DNA from: a virus
Taxonomy: Duplodnaviria; Caudoviricetes
Strand: one strand, 5' to 3'
DNA length: 64,000 nt
IMG/VR virus record: IMGVR_UViG_3300049298_000033
Location: 30,539 to 94,538 of that record
In this document: positions 3,053-54,295 of the stretch, piece after piece
Numbering within the stretch: the first letter of the stretch is position 1
Layout of the letters: each line of letters begins with the position of its first letter
Program-made: the position numbers and the translations under genes
Notes under the pieces: model-generated
What the model was told of the DNA's origin: nothing
Databases searched by the model: none
Seen by the model: only the letters and a program-made list of their open reading frames with translations

Positions 3053-3564
3053 GGGACTCCACGGACAAGGTGCTCACATCGATCGATGAGGCCCTCGACG
3101 ACTACATCACCTGGGACGGAGACAGCGATGACGCACTGTCCTGGGAAGCGAACCCGGCCGAGCCGTTCGATGAGGACGCCTGGCTTCAGGACGGCGTGAT
3201 CGACGAAGGGGAGATCGACGCTGACATCCAGGTCGTGAGGATCTGCGCGGACCTCGGTCGTCGGTCGGTCGCCTGGTCAGCCGATCCGGAAGCGATGGCG
3301 CGTTCGGTGAGTGTGATCAGTGATGCCATGCGTCTTCAGGTTGAGTCGCTGAAGAGCGCATTCATGTCGATCGGCAAGATGGTCATCAAGACGATCGAGG
3401 CTAACCATCCCAGCTTCGCCCGCATGACGATGGGCGACGACTATCGGCGACACCGCCGGGCCTGCCGTCTCTGCAACCCGTCCGGGAACCCGAAACCGCT
3501 CAAGGTGAACGGCGCGGAATACCGGCGGCGGACGCGCTCCAGGAGGCGCAAGAACCAGCGATGA
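3049..3564 (+). CDS. Hypothetical protein
   Basis: Overlapping start/stop; acidic N-term, HxxxCxxC and basic tail. Confidence 0.7.
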   Translation: MRDSTDKVLTSIDEALDDYITWDGDSDDALSWEANPAEPFDEDAWLQDGVIDEGEIDADIQVVRICADLGRRSVAWSADPEAMARSVSVISDAMRLQVESLKSAFMSIGKMVIKTIEANHPSFARMTMGDDYRRHRRACRLCNPSGNPKPLKVNGAEYRRRTRSRRRKNQR

Positions 3565-44402: not shown

Positions 44403-44431
44403 CGGTGCCCACAGCCCCTTTCCGGCTTGTT

Positions 44432-44549
44432 TCTGTGTACACAGATTACTCCCTACGCGGCTAGTCGGGCAAGGCTTCCGCTGATATTCTTGTGTACACA
44501 GAAACTGATCACTGACCGAAAGAGGTGGCTATGATTCCGTGGACACAGA
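44432..44549. promoter_or_regulatory. Three TGTGTACACAGA-type operators and a -10 (TATGAT) between divergent genes
   Basis: Perfect palindrome TCTGTGTACACAGA 44432-44445; copies at 44491 and 44539. Confidence 0.75.
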
Positions 44550-44569
44550 AGCAGCGACCGAGGAGCCGC

Positions 44570-44758
44570 GTGGCGCGACCGCGAACGGGCGAGACACCGA
44601 TCCGACATGTGCGCATCTCTGACGAGCTGTGGGGCAAGATCGAGCGCCTCGCCAACGAAGAAGGCCGCACCAAGACCGATGTGGTCGTTGAGGCGCTGAC
44701 GCGTCACGTGGCCCGTGTCCGCCGACAGCAGCAGCGAGCCAAGCGCGATGACGGCTGA
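44570..44758 (+). CDS. Ribbon-helix-helix (Arc/CopG-like) regulator
   Basis: RPRTGETPIRHVRISDELW...TKTDVVVEAL; GAGGAG RBS. Confidence 0.85.
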   Translation: MARPRTGETPIRHVRISDELWGKIERLANEEGRTKTDVVVEALTRHVARVRRQQQRAKRDDG

Positions 44759-44816
44759 CCTTCACTGACGCTCGTCCTCGGTGGTGTCGTCCGGCGGTGT
44801 GCGCTCCGGTGCGGGC

Positions 44817-47609: not shown

Positions 47610-47858
47610 TCAGGCCACCTCCAGGGTGTTGGTGAGGTGGCGGCGGCCAGCCTCAGTGATCGTGTACGTCGTGTGCACCGCACCGCGGTGAGCGGACAGG
47701 AACCCGTGCTCGGTGTTCTGGTTCAGCGCGGCGCGAATGTAGGAGTCCGGGACGTCCCGCAGGACACGGCGCACATCACCGGCAGTGAGCGGAGTGTCCT
47801 TGAAGACGGCCAGCACGGCGTTGTTCAGGTCGTTCCAGGTATCACTAGTAGAAGACAC
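47610..47858 (-). CDS. Winged-helix protein
   Basis: YTITEAGRRHL wing signature. Confidence 0.65.
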   Translation of the reverse strand: MSSTSDTWNDLNNAVLAVFKDTPLTAGDVRRVLRDVPDSYIRAALNQNTEHGFLSAHRGAVHTTYTITEAGRRHLTNTLEVA

Positions 47859-47891: not shown

Positions 47892-49967
47892 TCAGGCGGC
47901 GCGTTCGTAGCGGCCGTAGCGGGGCTGGGTCAGGTAGCCGGCCGCGACAAGCTCCTTCAAGAGCTCGGCGACACGGCGATGCTTCAATCCGGTGTGCTCT
48001 TCGATCTCGCTGGGGCGTGTCGCGCCAAGCGCGACCGCTTCGAGTACTGCCTGCTGCGATGCACTGAGTTCCTCAGTCCGCGTCGGCCGATGTGGGGTAC
48101 GGACCTGTTCGGCCGTGAGTGCCCGCGGGAACTCGATGAGCTCACCGAGCTCCTCGTCGGTTGCCGCCGCGGTCGGTGCCGGACGGGTCAGGGCGACGGT
48201 CGGACGTGGCGCAACAACATCCGGGTCGAGGCCGTTCCGCATCGCCTCGACTCGGGCGCGGGCCAGGTCCCGTCGCTGTGCGGTTGCATCATCGACCTCA
48301 TCGAACAGAAACCCGCCACGGCTGCGTGCGAACGCGTTCGCTAGCAGTGGATCGATCTGCGGTGCAGGCTGGGCGGCGAGCCATCGGCCAGTAGCTTCGC
48401 TGTCATCTCCGGTATCACGGTTCCGGAACGGGGCGGTACGAGATCCATTCTCGGCGCTGCCCAGGATGTACCCATAACCGGGGATCTTCGGGAGGGTCTT
48501 CGGGTCGACATCAAGGCCCGGCATGAGGCCCTTCGTCTGGTTCGACGTGGACCGCAGAACGATGCCGTTACCTTCCATGATCGAAGAGCGGAGGGCTTCG
48601 TTGTTCCCAAACGTGACGAGGCCGGGATACTGCGACACGGTGAGCAACGCGAACCCGACCTTGCGGCCCTCGCGGGCGACATAGGAGGCTTTCGCGGCGG
48701 TCTCCTTGTCCGCGAACGGACGATGACACTCCTCGATGATGGTGAGGATCCCAGGCCGCTCGGAGGAAGCGGTGAAGCCGATCCAGCCCTCGGCGGCGTT
48801 CTCTTCGCCGCGGGCTGCGATACCCGCCAGAAGCGCCTCAAGGAGCATGTCGATGTTCACGCCCGGGATGAACACGCGCGCATTGTCGGCCAGCGCCGGC
48901 GACGACACACCACCCTGCGGGTCGACGTAGATGATGATGGTGTCGCCGCCGGACAGCGCGGAGATCGCAATGTTCTCCACGAGCCGAGACTTCCCGATAC
49001 CGGTACCGCCGATGATCACCCCAGACCACATGGAACCGGGCGTGTACAGCCGCCAGGACGCGTCCCCGGCGCCATCGGCGAAGGGGCCAAGGTTGAGCAT
49101 GCCGCCATCGCGACGCGGACCGGTGAAATTTACGTCCCCGGCGATCGGTGAGTTCGTGATGACCTGGAACCGGGCTCGGGCTGCGGACCGGCGCTGACCG
49201 GGAACCTTCGGCGGGCCTTCGAGGATGATCTCATCGACGTCCCGGTCGAGCCCGCCCGCGATCTTCTCCAGGTTCGCGAACGCTGTGGACAGGCTCTGCC
49301 GGCCGCGCCAGAACTCAAGTTCGAACGACTGCGTGTGCGGGGTGATCTGAGGGTTTACCAGCCGGGACTTCGGGAGCGGGCCGCCATCGCAGGCGACGTA
49401 CTGGTCCCAGTCCGCGACGATCTCGTCTATCTCGGTGATCTCCTCCTCTGCCGGCTCTTCAATCGCGTCCGGCAGCGGGCATCCGATCCGGTTCGCTCGC
49501 CACCAGGCCGCGCCGAACGCATAGTCCGCAGCGAGAAGAGCTCCGGCCTGTTCGATCGTCACTCCGAATGGTGTCGTCGCCAGCCAGGCGGACGCGAACA
49601 TGCCGGCGCCGAGGACACGGTTTGCCCAGCGAGGGCGCCGCCGGAGCATCGCCTTCCAGGCCGTAGCCGTCGTCATAGCGCCGCCCGCCGCAGTGACGAG
49701 CGCAAGCATCCACGCGGGCATGCCGCCGGGCGCGGCGATGGAGTGTGCCGCCAGGCCCGCACCTGCTACCCCGCCCGTAACGAGGTGGGGAACTATCTGC
49801 CGGCGCAGCCGCCACAGCGTGGACGTCAGGTCACGCTGGGTTTTCACGAAGATCCCGGAAGACTCCCAGCGCTTCGCCGTGTCGAGCGGCGTGGATCGGG
49901 TGTCGTTGTTGGAGTCGTGCCGAATGTCGTCGCCGGTGGCCTGCGGTGGCGTCTGCTGGTCCAACAT
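47892..49967 (-). CDS. traB: TraB-like FtsK/SpoIIIE conjugative DNA translocase
   Basis: N-terminal TM helices, Walker A GGTGIGKS, Walker B IIEECH, REGRKVG, SQYP, PGYGY, C-terminal winged helix. Confidence 0.85.
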   Translation of the reverse strand: MLDQQTPPQATGDDIRHDSNNDTRSTPLDTAKRWESSGIFVKTQRDLTSTLWRLRRQIVPHLVTGGVAGAGLAAHSIAAPGGMPAWMLALVTAAGGAMTTATAWKAMLRRRPRWANRVLGAGMFASAWLATTPFGVTIEQAGALLAADYAFGAAWWRANRIGCPLPDAIEEPAEEEITEIDEIVADWDQYVACDGGPLPKSRLVNPQITPHTQSFELEFWRGRQSLSTAFANLEKIAGGLDRDVDEIILEGPPKVPGQRRSAARARFQVITNSPIAGDVNFTGPRRDGGMLNLGPFADGAGDASWRLYTPGSMWSGVIIGGTGIGKSRLVENIAISALSGGDTIIIYVDPQGGVSSPALADNARVFIPGVNIDMLLEALLAGIAARGEENAAEGWIGFTASSERPGILTIIEECHRPFADKETAAKASYVAREGRKVGFALLTVSQYPGLVTFGNNEALRSSIMEGNGIVLRSTSNQTKGLMPGLDVDPKTLPKIPGYGYILGSAENGSRTAPFRNRDTGDDSEATGRWLAAQPAPQIDPLLANAFARSRGGFLFDEVDDATAQRRDLARARVEAMRNGLDPDVVAPRPTVALTRPAPTAAATDEELGELIEFPRALTAEQVRTPHRPTRTEELSASQQAVLEAVALGATRPSEIEEHTGLKHRRVAELLKELVAAGYLTQPRYGRYERAA

Positions 49968-50071
49968 CGGCTCCTCCGTTCTTTCAGGTCGATTGGCGGG
50001 TGGCGGGTCAGGGATCCCCGCGGCCCTGCGTCCGCGGGTGACCCTCACGCTCCACACGGAACGTGGCGTGG

Positions 50072-51229
50072 TTACTCGGAAGTCGCGAACTGCTTGTTAC
50101 CGGCGTCCGGGTTGGCGCTGTACGCCTCCGTGACGTTCAGGTGGGAGGTGAGTTCCTCGCCGGCCGTCTCGAAGCAGGCCTGCGCGAGCTTCAGGTACTC
50201 CTTGCCCTGCGTCATCGGGTCGGTGACGGACGCGCCGACCTCGCCGTTCTGCAGCGCGGCAATGGACTGCTCCACGCTCGTGGCGCCCTCCTCACACGTC
50301 TTCGCCATGGCCTCGTTGTAGGCGATACCGGACTGGTTTCCGGTGGTCTCGATCGTGGTGGTCACGTCGGTCTCCTCCTCGGGTGTGGTTGAACCGCCAG
50401 ATGCTCTGGCGGGGTCCTGGGTGGCCTGGTCGGCGAGCTGCCGGACCTGCTCGTCGTGCTGTTCTCGGGGAGTTGAGCTACGCGGGATCTGCGGGCAGTC
50501 GTCTCTGGCGTGATCGACACCCACAACCCACTGGCCGGGCCGTTGCTGGTCTTTCGTGAGCGTGATCGGCCCGCTGCAGTCTCGGCAGCGACTGCTCTTC
50601 TGGTACTCGAGCAGGTGCGGCGGGGGCTGGTCCGGGTCAATCTCCCGGTGGTATCGGGCCTCCCACGCATTGCAGACGTGGGCTGCCTCGGCCATAGAGA
50701 TATCGAGCTCATCGGCGAGCGCCACTGGGGTCGACGGCTGGCCGCCGTTGCGGCGGCGTATCGCATACCGCTGGTACAGCGATTCCCGCATCCCGCCAAG
50801 GACGTAGGTGTCTTCGTCATGTACGACCGGCGCCGGAGGTGCCGGCTCGGACGGCTGGGCCGTCTCGCCCGGAACGTCAGGAGCTGCGACGGCGGGTGTC
50901 GTGAGGGCTTCCTCCGGTCGTGCATTGGTCTGCACGGGAGCGGGAGCAGCGCCGTCTTCTGTCGCCCACTTTTCGTGGCGTTTCTGGGTGCGCTTCCCGG
51001 CCCACCGGGCGCGCCGTTCCTCGGCGGTTTCCCATGCATCGTTGTAAGCGTTCCGGAAGAACTTCCGATGCCCGCGGTTCGCGGTTATCGGACGATTCGC
51101 TTCACGCCGCCTGATGCGTTCCTGTTCGCGAATGAACGACGGCGGAATCCGGCCGGTGATCGCATAGATCAGGTCCTGCGTCGTGTTCCGCACGCAGTAG
51201 TAGGCGAAGATCACGATGAGGAGGGCCAT
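50072..51229 (-). CDS. AICE-type transfer-region protein; probable internal start at 50365 (helical ~97-aa domain)
   Basis: N-terminal TM, Pro-rich linker; GAGGAGGAG before in-frame GTG. Confidence 0.65.
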   Translation of the reverse strand: MALLIVIFAYYCVRNTTQDLIYAITGRIPPSFIREQERIRRREANRPITANRGHRKFFRNAYNDAWETAEERRARWAGKRTQKRHEKWATEDGAAPAPVQTNARPEEALTTPAVAAPDVPGETAQPSEPAPPAPVVHDEDTYVLGGMRESLYQRYAIRRRNGGQPSTPVALADELDISMAEAAHVCNAWEARYHREIDPDQPPPHLLEYQKSSRCRDCSGPITLTKDQQRPGQWVVGVDHARDDCPQIPRSSTPREQHDEQVRQLADQATQDPARASGGSTTPEEETDVTTTIETTGNQSGIAYNEAMAKTCEEGATSVEQSIAALQNGEVGASVTDPMTQGKEYLKLAQACFETAGEELTSHLNVTEAYSANPDAGNKQFATSE

Positions 51230-51675
51230 TAGCCGTGGCCGCCCATCTTCACAACCTGCGTGTGCAGACGCTGATACGTCTGATGCACTGCGTTACCGCC
51301 TGTGGCTCCGATCGAGCCGGCGATGACCAGCGCCAGCATCGTCGGCGCGAGGATGGCTGAGAACTGGGCAGCGTTGTCGGCGCGACGGTCGAACGCGATG
51401 TCCGCGACGGCGACACCGGCCGCGGCGATAGTCAGCGCCAGCGGGATCCCGATCTTCAGGGCTGTGGACATTCCCGACACCCAGTCGACGCTCCAGGCGA
51501 GGAAGTCGCCGAGGAACGTGTACGCCATGCCGAGCCCGGCGATGAGCGAGACGAGCATGACGATGACCGACACGGCGGTCTGGCCTCGTCCGCGCGCGTT
51601 GACGCGCTTGTTGATCACCCACCGGAGCGCGAGCGCCGGGAGCATGAGCGCGAACCCTTCCAAGTGCAGATGCAT
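51229..51675 (-). CDS. Membrane protein (Spd-like)
   Basis: About 4 TM helices; upstream of TraB. Confidence 0.7.
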   Translation of the reverse strand: MHLHLEGFALMLPALALRWVINKRVNARGRGQTAVSVIVMLVSLIAGLGMAYTFLGDFLAWSVDWVSGMSTALKIGIPLALTIAAAGVAVADIAFDRRADNAAQFSAILAPTMLALVIAGSIGATGGNAVHQTYQRLHTQVVKMGGHG

Positions 51676-51694
51676 TGTCCTTCTCCTTCCTGTG

Positions 51695-52144
51695 TTAAAT
51701 GAGCCAGCTCACCGGCGGGAACTGGGCGAGGACGAACAGCAGCGCGCTGGCGGCGATGAGCCGGGTCGGGCGCTTGACGATCCACTTGAGGTACTCGGCG
51801 ACTGTGACGATCGGTATGACGACGAGCAGGGAGTAGACCTGGCCGGCGGTGCGGGGGATGCCGTCCTTGGACGTCCACTCGCCGCGGCACGCGTAGGCCC
51901 ACTCCTGCTCGAGGGGTTCGCTGCCGTCTGTCCAGACCGCAGGCGGAGTGATCCAGTCCTTGAACCACTCCCACACATCCCAGAAGCCGTCACTCTCGGT
52001 CACTGCACTCTGTGGGTCGGACTGTGCGGTAGACTCAGTCCTCTCGCGCGCAGGTGCGCGCACGGACGCGTGGACCCCGTTCGAGGGCGCGTCTCCCCGC
52101 TGGTCCGCACTGTGCAGTGCACTGTGACTGTCCGTCACGGTCAT
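51695..52144 (-). CDS. Membrane protein
   Basis: Two C-terminal hydrophobic segments; W...RP.R. Confidence 0.7.
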   Translation of the reverse strand: MTVTDSHSALHSADQRGDAPSNGVHASVRAPARERTESTAQSDPQSAVTESDGFWDVWEWFKDWITPPAVWTDGSEPLEQEWAYACRGEWTSKDGIPRTAGQVYSLLVVIPIVTVAEYLKWIVKRPTRLIAASALLFVLAQFPPVSWLI

Positions 52145-52404
52145 GCCGCTACCTCCTTCAGGTTCAGAATCCGGTCGCCGGCGTCCGTGAGCCCATCGAC
52201 GACCTCGGTAGCGACGTCCACACGGCCTGGCTGGCGGGCCAACGCTGCCCGCACGTAGTCCGCTGCGGCATTCACCCGGTCGCGAGGATCGGTGAGGTCG
52301 GCGAGCTCGGCGTCGAGGCGCTGCCGCAGCCGCTGAGCGCTGACGGCCCGCTTCAGGGGCTTGCCCTTATCCCGCCGCCTACCGGCCATCGCTGGACTCC
52401 TCAC
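52141..52404 (-). CDS. Small helical protein
   Basis: ATGA overlap. Confidence 0.6.
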   Translation of the reverse strand: MRSPAMAGRRRDKGKPLKRAVSAQRLRQRLDAELADLTDPRDRVNAAADYVRAALARQPGRVDVATEVVDGLTDAGDRILNLKEVAA

Positions 52405-52606
52405 CGTGCGCTGGCTTCGGCTTCATGTAGGTCTGGTAGATCCAGGCGCCGACCACGACGAAGGCGACGACGACCAGGAAGCCGACGAACTTCATGTAGG
52501 TGTTCAGGTCCCATCCCGTGGCCGTCGCGAACACTCCACCGAAGACAGCCCCGGTGATGGCCGCCGCTACCGCGGTCGTTACGGCTGGTCTGATGTTGGA
52601 GCTCAT
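52379..52606 (-). CDS. Small 2-TM membrane protein
   Basis: Hydrophobic helices; GAGGA RBS. Confidence 0.65.
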   Translation of the reverse strand: MSSNIRPAVTTAVAAAITGAVFGGVFATATGWDLNTYMKFVGFLVVVAFVVVGAWIYQTYMKPKPAHGEESSDGR

Positions 52607-52608
52607 CG

Positions 52609-53090
52609 GGTTCCTCGATTCGGTTCACGGCAGGTTCGCGGTTCAGGGTGGTTCAGGTTCACGAGGCGGCTGCCTGGTTCGTGAGTTTCCGTGCTTCTAC
52701 GAGGCGGTTGTAGGCGGTCGTCTTCGTGAACCCGCACCGGTCGCGAACCACGCCCAAGGTGACGGCGTCGTAGCCGAGCTCGTCGATCAGGTCGCGAACC
52801 TGCTGAACCTCAGCGGCCTTCTTGCGCGCCCTGTCGCCGAAGCTGGTGGCGGTCGGCTTGGTTCGCTGCGGTTCCTGAACCTCGGGGTTTGGAACCTGCT
52901 GGTTCGCCGGTTCGTGAACCTCGGGTTCTTGAACCTCGACTCGCTGGTTCGCGGGTTCGGGTTCACGCGGTTCGCGTTGGTTCAGGTTCGCGGGTTCATC
53001 AGCATCGTGAACAGGGACATCGTGAACCTTCGGCTCCTCCGGTTCGCGAACTTGCTGAACCTCGGGTTCGTGAACCGGTTCGCTGGTTCG
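52609..53090. repeat. Dense GGTTC/GAACC repeat field (candidate clt/TraB or centromere-like binding locus)
   Basis: About 23 GGTTC plus 11 GAACC by manual count; extends beyond stop codon. Confidence 0.75.
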
Positions 53091-53852
53091 CGCAGAGAAC
53101 AGATCGTCGCCAACCGCGATCTCGCGGAGCGACGCCTCATCCTCGCCCGTGACCTTCTCGGCCTGGCCCCGGGCGGACACCGCGAACACGGTCGCGACGA
53201 TGAACGAGAAGAACGCGAACGCTGCGGCTCCGGCAGCGCAGATCGCACCGATCACGTTGCCGCCGTAGACGTTCGCTCCCATCGATGCCGCGAGAGGCGT
53301 GATCATCAACGCCCACAAGGCGACGTCCTGCCATGCCTTGACCTTCCCGCCATGCTGAGCCAGGTCGGACTTGGCGAGGATCACGACGGTCGCGAGCCCG
53401 GTGAGGCCGATCTCGGCGATGTACCCCGAACCCTTCGGGATGTTGTCGTACTCGCCGGCCAGGTGCTCCAGTCCGCGAGCCGACCCGAACGCCAACACGA
53501 CCGACGTGGCGAGCGACAGACGCATATACCGAATTCGGCTGGCATGCAGCGCGAGAACAGACCGGGCGGCCGATGAGGCTTCTCGTGCTTCCTGCAATGC
53601 CTCAAGCGCTTTTTCGGCATGCGAGGCACGTCGGTCCTCGACGCGGTGACGGCGACGAGTGCGGCCGTGCTCGGCATCCAATGCCATTCGGTGCTGAATG
53701 TCCCGGAGCCGGTCGGCGTGGGGGCGTACTGCGGGATTAGTGCGCGGGTCCGCGAGCCGTTCCTGACCCGGAATGCGGGCAAGGTCTTCGGCTTTCGATG
53801 TTTGGTCCTGAACGGACGAGACAACGTTAGGTATTTGCCTACGGAACTTCAT
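52659..53852 (-). CDS. SpdB-like spread protein (TM domain, repeat region, C-terminal HTH)
   Basis: About 4 TM helices, EPEV/EPAN repeats, C-terminal GFTKTTAY HTH-like. Confidence 0.7.
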   Translation of the reverse strand: MKFRRQIPNVVSSVQDQTSKAEDLARIPGQERLADPRTNPAVRPHADRLRDIQHRMALDAEHGRTRRRHRVEDRRASHAEKALEALQEAREASSAARSVLALHASRIRYMRLSLATSVVLAFGSARGLEHLAGEYDNIPKGSGYIAEIGLTGLATVVILAKSDLAQHGGKVKAWQDVALWALMITPLAASMGANVYGGNVIGAICAAGAAAFAFFSFIVATVFAVSARGQAEKVTGEDEASLREIAVGDDLFSARTSEPVHEPEVQQVREPEEPKVHDVPVHDADEPANLNQREPREPEPANQRVEVQEPEVHEPANQQVPNPEVQEPQRTKPTATSFGDRARKKAAEVQQVRDLIDELGYDAVTLGVVRDRCGFTKTTAYNRLVEARKLTNQAAAS

Positions 53853-54295
53853 GCCGCCACCGCCATCCGGTCGTTCCGGCGCCCTTCGGTGTTCCGGCAG
53901 GACGCACACTTGCCCGTGCGCCCGTTCTTCGTCTTCGGGTTCCGGTGGAAAGCCGACAGCGGCTTAATCTGCTCGCACTTTACGCACCGCTGGTGCCCGT
54001 CCGCGACAGGCTCCCGGCGCTCCTGGGCGAGCCGGCGGCGTTCCCGCTCGGACATGCCGCCCCAAATCCCGTACCGCTCGTCGTTGCGCAGTGCGTAGTC
54101 GAGGCATTCCGTGCGGACCTCGCATTTGCGACACACAGCTTTGGCGGCACGAGTCGAGCCGCCCTTCTCCGGGAAGAACGACTCAGGATCCGTCTCGGTG
54201 CAGCGGCTCTGCGCCATCCACGGTTCGGTGTCGACGAGGTCCTCGCGGTCGGGACGGTACAGCGCCTCCGCGCGGCGGATCTGGCGGGCGGTCAT
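53849..54295 (-). CDS. whiB: WhiB family transcription factor with extra C-terminal Zn finger
   Basis: C..DPE.FFP, CxxC, C, GIWGG. Confidence 0.93.
   Translation of the reverse strand: MTARQIRRAEALYRPDREDLVDTEPWMAQSRCTETDPESFFPEKGGSTRAAKAVCRKCEVRTECLDYALRNDERYGIWGGMSERERRRLAQERREPVADGHQRCVKCEQIKPLSAFHRNPKTKNGRTGKCASCRNTEGRRNDRMAVAA

Follow-up and report, generated by a model that had tools for sequence, protein, structure and literature searches.

A field of GGTTC/GAACC words inside the gene of a Spd-like membrane protein in a tailed prophage, and the candidate reader carried by the same protein

Introduction

To our knowledge, the only specific protein-site pair described for transfer is that formed by TraB and clt. 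Proteins whose sites are embedded in their own gene are known from origin and centromere functions: the lambda origin sits in the linker-coding, flexible part of the O gene, and in Bacillus subtilis parS is found inside spo0J.

The known clt loci are clusters of 5–9-bp repeats read by TraB or TraA, with 8-bp repeats in pSVH1, nine 9-bp repeats in pJV1, four copies of TGACACC in pWTY27, and a 54-bp clt in pIJ101 (PMC4447253, PMC3583192). SpdA2 of the Streptomyces lividans plasmid pIJ101 recognises palindromic sites within its own coding sequence and has an influence on stability (Thoma et al., 2014, PMC4170104); it is a small soluble protein (117–163 aa) with an N-terminal DNA-binding region, and its sites are 1–3 copies of one 12-bp palindrome conserved across plasmids (PMC4170104). 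SpdB2 of pSVH1, with four transmembrane (TM) helices and a coiled coil, binds dsDNA non-specifically, oligomerises, interacts with TraB and is needed for intramycelial spreading, and homologues of it have been noted on actinophages (PMC4447253).

The DNA considered here, which we call the window, is a stretch of 64,000 nucleotides, bases 30539–94538 of a replicon represented by one contig of 94,538 bases (IMGVR_UViG_3300049298_000033), which IMG/VR classifies as a provirus. It encodes a large terminase, a portal, a head protease, a major head protein, a tape measure, an endolysin and a tyrosine integrase, as well as XRE and RHH regulators, and it also contains a leftward operon in the order WhiB, Spd-like gene, five small and mostly membrane-protein genes, and a TraB-like translocase. 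In other words, a transfer-type module sits in a tailed prophage. The parts of this module, in the order of the operon, are as follows (L numbers denote related loci).

53849–54295, minus strand: WhiB-family gene, directly upstream of the Spd-like gene and translationally coupled to it.
52659–53852, minus strand: Spd-like gene, 397 aa from the ATG at 53852 (the longest ORF reaches 53909); the ATG overlaps the WhiB stop codon (ATGA).
50072–52606, minus strand: block of five small genes, most of them for membrane proteins, that separates the Spd-like gene from traB; orf87, orf149, orf148 and orf385 are common to L001, L030 and L003, and orf75 occurs in the window only.
47892–50057, minus strand: TraB-like FtsK-family dsDNA translocase, with Walker A GGTGIGKS and a C-terminal winged HTH (wHTH); a rival reader of the word.
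47610–47858, minus strand: small ORF, called a wHTH in the initial annotation; it has no relative in any related locus and no Pfam match.

Comparison with the described systems

Among the known systems, SpdA2/sps and clt come nearest in function and SpdB2 in architecture; none of these memberships holds. The likeness to SpdA2/sps is that of an actinomycete transfer or spread DNA-binding protein with sites in its own coding sequence, visible there as a repeated peptide (SRDD/E in SpdA2, EP/EV/AN here), and in both cases, putatively for the window, protein and sites act on the element's own DNA. In contrast to SpdA2, the protein of the window is membrane-anchored, carries its HTH at the C-terminus, and is accompanied by some 34 sites of a 5–8-bp word that varies by cassette class. 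The sps palindrome CGTCACGTGACG has no match in the replicon at 0 mismatches and one distant site at 1 mismatch, and no sequence relationship to SpdA2 was found.

With clt the locus shares a cluster of short repeats on an element with a dsDNA-moving TraB, an 8-mer consensus and subarrays of direct repeats, and by analogy the role of the field may equal that of clt, which is to mark element DNA for the translocation machinery. It differs from clt in that the word does not co-vary with TraB and is placed in another gene, 2.6 kb from traB; moreover, clt is read by the pump, whereas the reader proposed here is the membrane Spd-like protein. A scan of the replicon for the published clt words found no cluster of them.

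The Spd-like protein takes the operon position of SpdB2 and SpdB, upstream of traB, and at about 400 aa it has the build described for SpdB2 (PMC4447253), in which an N-terminal coiled coil and four TM helices precede a C-terminal domain; no cognate sites have been described for SpdB2, and hhalign of the family profile against pIJ101 SpdB gave a probability of 2.3%, that is, no detectable homology. The lambda O/ori and parS/spo0J pairs share with the window the embedding of the sites in the protein's own gene, but they serve as origin and centromere, with 4–10 longer sites, and the window has neither an AT-rich element nor Par proteins. The field and its gene would thus be a putative DNA-binding protein of the spread module with sites in its own gene, an arrangement of which the searchable literature gave no published description.

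The word field

The field and its two densest parts are defined as follows.

52609–53090, no strand assigned: whole word field, with 34 copies of GGTTC/GAACC; the only such cluster in the replicon by counts and Poisson test.
52607–52661, minus strand: spacer after the stop codon; its six words share one orientation (GAACC on the coding strand), the first overlapping the stop codon and the last overlapping the ribosome-binding site (RBS) of the next gene, GAGGAACC.
52860–53092, minus strand: linker-coding field, with 23 words in mixed orientation and four palindromes, the 5-mer covering 49% of the bases; it encodes the disordered linker of about 90 residues.

The initial annotation had reported about 23 GGTTC and 11 GAACC in some 480 bp, with palindromes at four positions, copies in both orientations and a continuation past the stop codon, and all of this is borne out: the exact counts in the window are 23 and 11, the four 12-bp palindromes GGTTCnnGAACC at 52870, 52909, 52924 and 53065 are perfect, inverted copies make up about a third of the field, and six copies (52609–52660), all in a single orientation, follow the stop codon. 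The rest of the 94.5-kb replicon has 2.7 words per kb, so that 1.3 would be expected in 482 bp; with 34 words, the field is 26-fold above the remaining replicon (Poisson P ~7e-36), and this enrichment is established. The runner-up among 480-bp stretches of the replicon has 6 words, which leaves the field as the sole such cluster in 94.5 kb, and a scan of the whole replicon for other short words found no comparable local cluster.

Alignment of the 34 copies extends the consensus to the 8-mer GGTTC-R-C-G and gives 7–8 bp as the most frequent centre-to-centre spacing, most of the words being direct repeats at this distance. Per 100 bp, the spacer (55 bp) holds 10.9 words and the linker-coding part 9.9; the density is 2.5 where the HTH is encoded and 0.1 over the codons of the N-terminal membrane domain. 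Within the coding sequence lie 27–28 of the 34 words, and the peptide repeat dialect EP/EV/AN is the result. An Rfam scan of the field gave no match, and scans for promoters and terminators found nothing in it, a promoter-like site included.

Selection on the DNA and the linker peptide

On the coding strand GAACC can be read as GAA-CCn (Glu-Pro), as G-AAC-C (Asn) or as CGA-ACC (Arg-Thr), and therefore the word stands in frames 0, 1 and 2; the inverse word reads G-GTT-C (Val). The rare codons GTT and GAA are used in building it: GTT makes up 9 of the 11 Val codons of the linker, against 9 of 140 in the genes nearby (Fisher 3e-8); all 10 Glu codons that precede Pro are GAA, and all 6 that precede Val are GAG, supplying the G of GGTTC. 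When the peptide was held fixed and synonymous codons were redrawn from local usage, the 27 words of the coding part stood against 6.4±2.1, and none of 2000 draws reached this number, the maximum being 14. A second statistic, for which the word is not pre-selected, takes the most frequent 6-mer, whichever it is, and sets its count against that of the most frequent 6-mer in the resamplings; for the gene of the window it gives z = 7.2.

The signal sits in the DNA, not in the peptide. The selection on the DNA itself, which the initial annotation had suspected, is established by the codon resampling, the three frames, the two strands and the continuation past the stop codon. On the other hand, the earlier picture of a field overprinted on an EPEV/EPAN peptide should probably be reversed, as the linker is predicted to be disordered (pLDDT ~30) and its peptide looks like a by-product of the DNA words. 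The sites would lie in the linker codons because a disordered linker accepts nearly any peptide, and from this tolerance it follows that EP/EV/AN would have no more than this derived status. The locus is a clear case of a non-coding signal that dictates the linker sequence of a protein, with consequences for the annotation and interpretation of low-complexity "peptide repeats".

Domains and fold of the Spd-like protein

Two structured regions flank the linker.

53093–53852, minus strand: N-terminal coiled coil and four TM helices, forming the membrane anchor; its 760 bp hold a single word; as a family it is conserved across Actinomadura, Thermomonospora and Nocardiopsis.
52662–52859, minus strand: C-terminal three-helix HTH with recognition helix ...TKTTAYNRL..., the proposed reader of the word; five words in its codons; pLDDT 84–93.

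An AlphaFold model built on 15 relatives predicts an N-terminal coiled coil, four long TM helices, some 90 disordered residues (pLDDT ~30) and a three-helix C-terminal domain (pLDDT ~90), the latter being recovered at pLDDT 84 when modelled by itself. With this domain as the query, about 45 of the top 50 Foldseek matches in the PDB were DNA-binding domains of the TetR family (rmsd 2–3 Å over 40–55 residues), at E-values that are weak, 0.5–2, as expected for a domain of 68 residues; phmmer against PDB sequences reached E ~0.03 to TetR proteins of the gamma-butyrolactone-receptor type. The same fold search with the full-length model returned helical-bundle noise alone. Pfam, NCBIfam and PHROGs gave no match for the Spd-like protein, and DUF2637 (PF10935) matched neither this protein, nor 38 members of its family, nor the six-frame translation of the replicon.

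The C-terminal HTH is TetR-like, but only the HTH resembles TetR, and membership of the TetR family fails. With TetR-family repressors it shares the three-helix HTH and a recognition helix of the T-x-x-Y type, and its best matches in both sequence and fold are the N-terminal domains of TetR proteins. These repressors, however, carry the HTH at the N-terminus, followed by a C-terminal ligand-binding and dimerisation domain, whereas in the window the HTH is at the C-terminus of a membrane protein that has neither ligand-binding nor dimerisation domain; Pfam TetR_N does not match the Spd-like protein, and a regulatory domain was not found in it either. HTHs of the TetR type are normally dimeric and bind palindromes, which counts against this HTH as the reader, as the field consists mostly of direct repeats 7–8 bp apart.

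Cassettes and words among the relatives

The relatives of the Spd-like protein, about 95 in number, are found in Actinomadura, Thermomonospora, Spirillospora and Nocardiopsis. Across them the membrane domain is conserved, while the linker and the C-terminal domain occur as distinct cassettes, each with a peptide "dialect" of its own. Wherever DNA of the locus is available, every cassette that has a field also has its own DNA word, clustered solely at this place of the locus, and the words seen over the relatives are GAACC, CGGACC, CCGTAC, CCGCTC, GNCCAC and CGAAGC. The cassettes of the family loci are these.

KTTAYxRL cassette (class A): word GAACC, 28–58 copies; window, L001, L004, L030 and L041; N-terminal identity to the window 44–63%.
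IGKxAALELV cassette (class C): word CGGACC; L002, L025 and L026.
NRRIVRELL cassette: word GNCCAC; L003 and L023.
Single cassette: word CCGTAC, 41 copies; L006.
Single cassette: word CCGCTC, 20 copies; L032.

In all the field loci open to the test, the observed word count exceeds every synonymous resampling. The largest cassette class, with a TVKRHRRA HTH, has no field in its 7 loci (z ≤2), nor have some 20 DUF2637 genes drawn at random (z ≤2.4), which ties the field to particular cassettes and not to disordered linkers in general; for the same reason, the basic function of the family does not require it. A soluble HTH relative, L042, has no field nearby.

The cassettes appear to move independently of the anchors. 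P0007 and P0009 are 84–91% identical in the N-terminal domain, yet carry another cassette; conversely, the linker dialect and HTH of the window are also found on the unrelated anchors P0094–P0097, two of which are DUF2637. L003 and L004 belong to one strain (Actinomadura sp. CNU-125) and have different cassettes, as expected of element-specific addresses. Outside these loci, an 87.8-kb Streptomyces plasmid with a GntR-spd-tra arrangement has a DUF2637 gene with a KQTTAYDRL HTH, whose linker contains 30 CGAAGC words against 5.5±2.1 expected, with Glu codons GAA:GAG at 30:8 compared to 17:41 in the neighbours. As a first pair of recognition helices to set beside their words, TKTTAYNRL goes with GCGAACC and KQTTAYDRL with CCGAAGC.

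These data bear on the explanation that needs no reading protein at all, in which slippage or duplication of short units would have filled a mutation-tolerant linker, and the word would share its ancestry with the adjacent HTH merely through linkage. Disordered linkers do accept such changes, an 8-bp unit expanding in threes would by itself place the word in three frames, and Tandem Repeats Finder detects local two-copy duplications with periods of 15, 16, 25 and 39 bp in the field. These duplications are few, however, and the same program found no long array of fixed period, so that the field is not a simple slippage array; a third of the copies are inverted, with four perfect palindromes among them, and the word and a similar density persist where the flanking domains are only 44–50% identical and where positions and linker lengths differ. 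The words also run past the stop codon into non-coding DNA in 5 of 5 class-A loci (6 words in L001, 8 in L030, at least 9 in L041/L090, and present in L004), and the absence of any excess from the largest cassette class and from the random DUF2637 linkers is not what a general tendency of such linkers would produce. We consider this explanation very unlikely.

Which protein may read the word

The initial annotation took the field to be a binding platform, a view that stands as the most reasonable one, and named three candidate readers: the wHTH of TraB, the C-terminal HTH of the gene itself and the small ORF at 47610. The last of these has no counterpart in any of the word-carrying relatives and is thereby excluded as a conserved reader. 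Between the other two, the comparison of the loci favours the protein's own HTH and disfavours TraB, as judged from sequence. Within ±10 kb, the C-terminal domain of the Spd-like protein is the only segment present in all the GAACC loci and absent elsewhere, and the word changes with the HTH cassette and not with the membrane anchor, the type of TraB or any other neighbour; this co-variation is established.

Three comparisons separate the candidates. L003 has in common with the group of the window WhiB, the membrane domain, orf87, orf149, orf148, TraB and orf150, and the body of its TraB is 80% identical to that of L001 (recognition helix LKHRQ vs LKHRR); in it the block of linker plus HTH alone has been swapped, the word is GNCCAC and no cluster of GAACC was found, and the similarity of its DNA to the window ends exactly at the start of the field. 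L004 has the HTH class of the window and the densest GAACC field, and its nearby translocase is a protein with an FtsK-gamma domain in which no similarity to the TraB of the window was detectable. Finally, L025 and L026 have the same word and HTH class, with TraB C-termini that are 26% identical and recognition helices that differ. The window, L001 and L030 cannot separate the readers, because in them TraB, including its wHTH, is conserved as well. As word and HTH are within 0.5 kb of each other, part of their co-variation may be linkage; that the swapped block is flanked on either side by conserved genes, and that the cassette is portable, lessens this concern without removing it.

A true clt would be a locus at which the C-terminal wHTH of TraB reads the 8-mer GGTTCRCG, in the manner of pSVH1 TraB on its own 8-bp repeats, and TraB loads and pumps the DNA of the element. 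The consensus is indeed an 8-mer, spaced at 7–8 bp with many direct repeats, the TraB wHTH is conserved in the window, L001 and L030, which all have the same word, and a search for a second shared repeat near traB that could act as a separate clt found none. Nevertheless, the same type of TraB goes with another word in L003, the same word goes with an unrelated translocase in L004, and one word goes with unrelated TraB C-termini in L025 and L026; furthermore, the clt of pWTY27 and pIJ101 adjoin tra or korB (PMC3583192), whereas the field is separated from traB, which lies downstream of it, by 2.6 kb and five genes, and its 34 copies far exceed any described clt (3–9 repeats). As this evidence weighs against TraB as the reader, the label of clt given by the initial annotation is not established, and we regard it as unlikely.

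The sites could also be read by the protein's own HTH for a regulatory purpose: bound inside its gene and just past the end of it, the protein would repress its own expression or act as a roadblock to transcription, and so hold down the downstream operon with its potentially toxic traB. The array is inside the operon, with the five small genes and traB downstream, and its final copies extend over the intergenic spacer and the RBS region of the next gene; TetR-like HTHs are classically repressors, and tight control is required of traB in Streptomyces plasmids, where it is a kil function (PMC4447253). But one or two operators suffice for repression, not 34 sites, the field has no promoter-like site that could be found, a repressor needs neither a membrane anchor nor a 90-residue tether, and in most such modules regulation falls to a gene dedicated to it (GntR in L045, and XRE and RHH in the window). 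In our judgement, regulation as the purpose is rather improbable.

As for a replication origin or a centromere read by some other factor, either with iterons as in lambda O/ori or in the manner of parS, the lambda origin and the B. subtilis parS are precedents for a binding array inside a gene. ParA and ParB were not found in the replicon (PF02195 and PF13614 unmatched), which removes membership of the ParB/parS group and leaves room for an unconventional stability system, and SpdA2/sps influences segregational stability (PMC4170104). Against this, the DNA next to the field has a GC content of 0.57–0.68, with no AT-rich unwinding element adjoining it, no other co-varying reader was found within ±10 kb, and the element, which encodes an integrase and is listed as an integrated provirus, has no need of an autonomous centromere or origin at the field. 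A separate factor of this kind has, in our estimation, hardly any likelihood, although a centromere-like role is a live alternative as a function of the Spd-like protein and its own sites.

A proposed mechanism for the protein and its sites

The reading that we prefer, with a probability of roughly 0.55, is that the field is a docking array for the protein's own TetR-like HTH, which would tether the DNA of the element at a TraB/Spd complex. The protein would be anchored in the membrane by its four helices, with the coiled coil probably driving oligomerisation, and the disordered linker of about 90 residues would let the HTH domains reach the DNA, where some 34 sites in 480 bp could give rise to a high-avidity nucleoprotein complex specific to the element. 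This complex would keep the element DNA close to the membrane, in the neighbourhood of the TraB pump and of the other Spd-like and small membrane proteins, in such a way that the element's own DNA would be selected for dsDNA translocation between hyphal compartments or cells; alternatively, the outcome could be the retention and stabilisation of the element DNA, as with SpdA2/sps. The location of the sites within the gene may favour loading in cis during the synthesis of the protein. The binding of the word by the HTH, a tether built of oligomers and a connection to transfer or spreading are all inferred; each piece has a plausible precedent in SpdA2 of pIJ101, SpdB2 of pSVH1 or the TraB-read clt clusters.

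A broader and more tentative proposal, to which we give a smaller chance, is that these are self-addressed DNA-capture modules, in which a docking array and its reading HTH would form a portable unit attachable to any membrane anchor, with a private address code by which the genome of a temperate phage or plasmid would be caught at the membrane, perhaps in cis and while the protein is being translated, before being handed to a TraB pump. If so, the diversified words would avert cross-talk between the elements of one host, and a tailed prophage could spread through the mycelium like a conjugative plasmid, without lysis. Independently of this proposal, the locus points to a putative second specificity system, encoded by the cassette, in which the tail of a membrane protein would be sequence-specific and its cognate sites, dozens in number, would lie in the gene that encodes it. 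The presence of the module in an intact tailed prophage bears on a possible conjugation-like movement of some actinophages between hyphal compartments; no relative of the Spd-like protein or of TraB was found in any of the deposited phage genomes, and a query of genome contigs with TraB returned no loci.

Other cassettes and minor observations

For the cassette classes B (QVT), E (VSDT) and G (GANG), DNA was not found in viral contigs, nor, for class B, in 401 genomes of the family; for these classes, the peptide dialects predict words that would be GGTCAC-like and GACAC-like.

An apparent cluster of four copies of TGTACACA is really one palindrome in two copies, that is, an ordinary operator pair. 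The sequence forms of the word that are candidate ligands of the HTH are GGTTCGTGAACC and, in tandem, GGTTCGCG, and a further word-type sequence, putatively of the kind found in other Spd-like genes, is GTTGCAAC.

A word field and other DUF2637 genes on Streptomyces plasmids

The arrangement of a word field with a related C-terminal helix-turn-helix (HTH) is found in a gene of the DUF2637 class, membrane anchors of actinomycete plasmids unrelated to the Spd-like protein. On the 87.8-kb plasmid of Streptomyces sp. NBC_01723 (locus L045, 2426-3925), where the gene order is GntR-spd-tra, the DUF2637 gene contains about 30 CGAAGC words within an AEAEA-type linker that has a strong GAA codon bias, and its product carries a KQTTAYDRL HTH, a close relative of that of the window; the arrangement is therefore also present on a genuine Streptomyces plasmid. 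In a Streptomyces cyaneofuscatus linear plasmid (L046, 143-4195) a DUF2637 membrane protein gene, which has no word field, lies directly 3′ of parA-parB, and this adjacency hints at a link of this class of membrane proteins to partition. Repeats of another type occur in the linker of a DUF2637 gene of the 1.05-Mb Streptomyces globisporus plasmid (L044, about 3200-3500), where, in contrast to the word fields, the unit is long and kept in a single frame: eight near-perfect 36-bp tandem repeats, encoding the peptide EQPKQHEQPEPT.

Words and cassettes among the relatives

In the class-A proteins (KTTAYxRL HTH with the GAACC word), the C-terminal ...VNQ is nearly invariant and coincides with a conserved copy of the word (window 52676-52680), which is situated 22 bp before the stop codon in the window and in the related loci L001 and L030. 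Part of what appears to be C-terminal protein conservation in class A may be conservation of a DNA site.

Two related elements are found in a single strain, Actinomadura sp. CNU-125, namely L003 (NODE_6, 95.3 kb) and L004 (NODE_133), and they differ both in their linker/HTH cassettes and in their words, GNCCAC in the former but GAACC in the latter. In both assemblies the membrane-domain and cassette parts of the Spd-like gene are separated by an apparent frameshift, which may be either genuine or an assembly error in the repeat.

In the Nocardiopsis-type relatives with the STVRRIR HTH (L081 and L083-L088), the linkers contain a PSERSHG peptide repeat, and GAGCGC is in modest excess (z 1.3-4.7); these linkers may hold a comparable field that is either weaker or more ancient.

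Nature of the replicons

Many of the relatives (loci L001, L003, L030 and L037, proteins P0036, P0042 and P0053) are carried by contigs of 80-97 kb, a size similar to that of the 94.5-kb record of the window, and within the CNU-125 assembly coverage is higher for NODE_6 (271) than for NODE_133 (228). Instead of being integrated prophages, some of the contigs could represent whole phage-plasmids that exist outside the chromosome. L001 (CAZYSQ010000001.1; 96.7 kb) has a high GC content and Actinomadura-like genes, yet is labelled “uncultured Acholeplasmataceae”, probably a binning error.

A palindrome pair in the window

Another repeated element lies at 44425-44760:

About 44432 and about 44491: the 12-bp palindrome CTGTGTACACAG, once at each position, 5′ of the small ORF
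44532-44759, plus strand: small ORF, whose product resembles a ribbon-helix-helix regulator

The palindrome has no further copies in the whole replicon, and the two are probably an ordinary operator pair.
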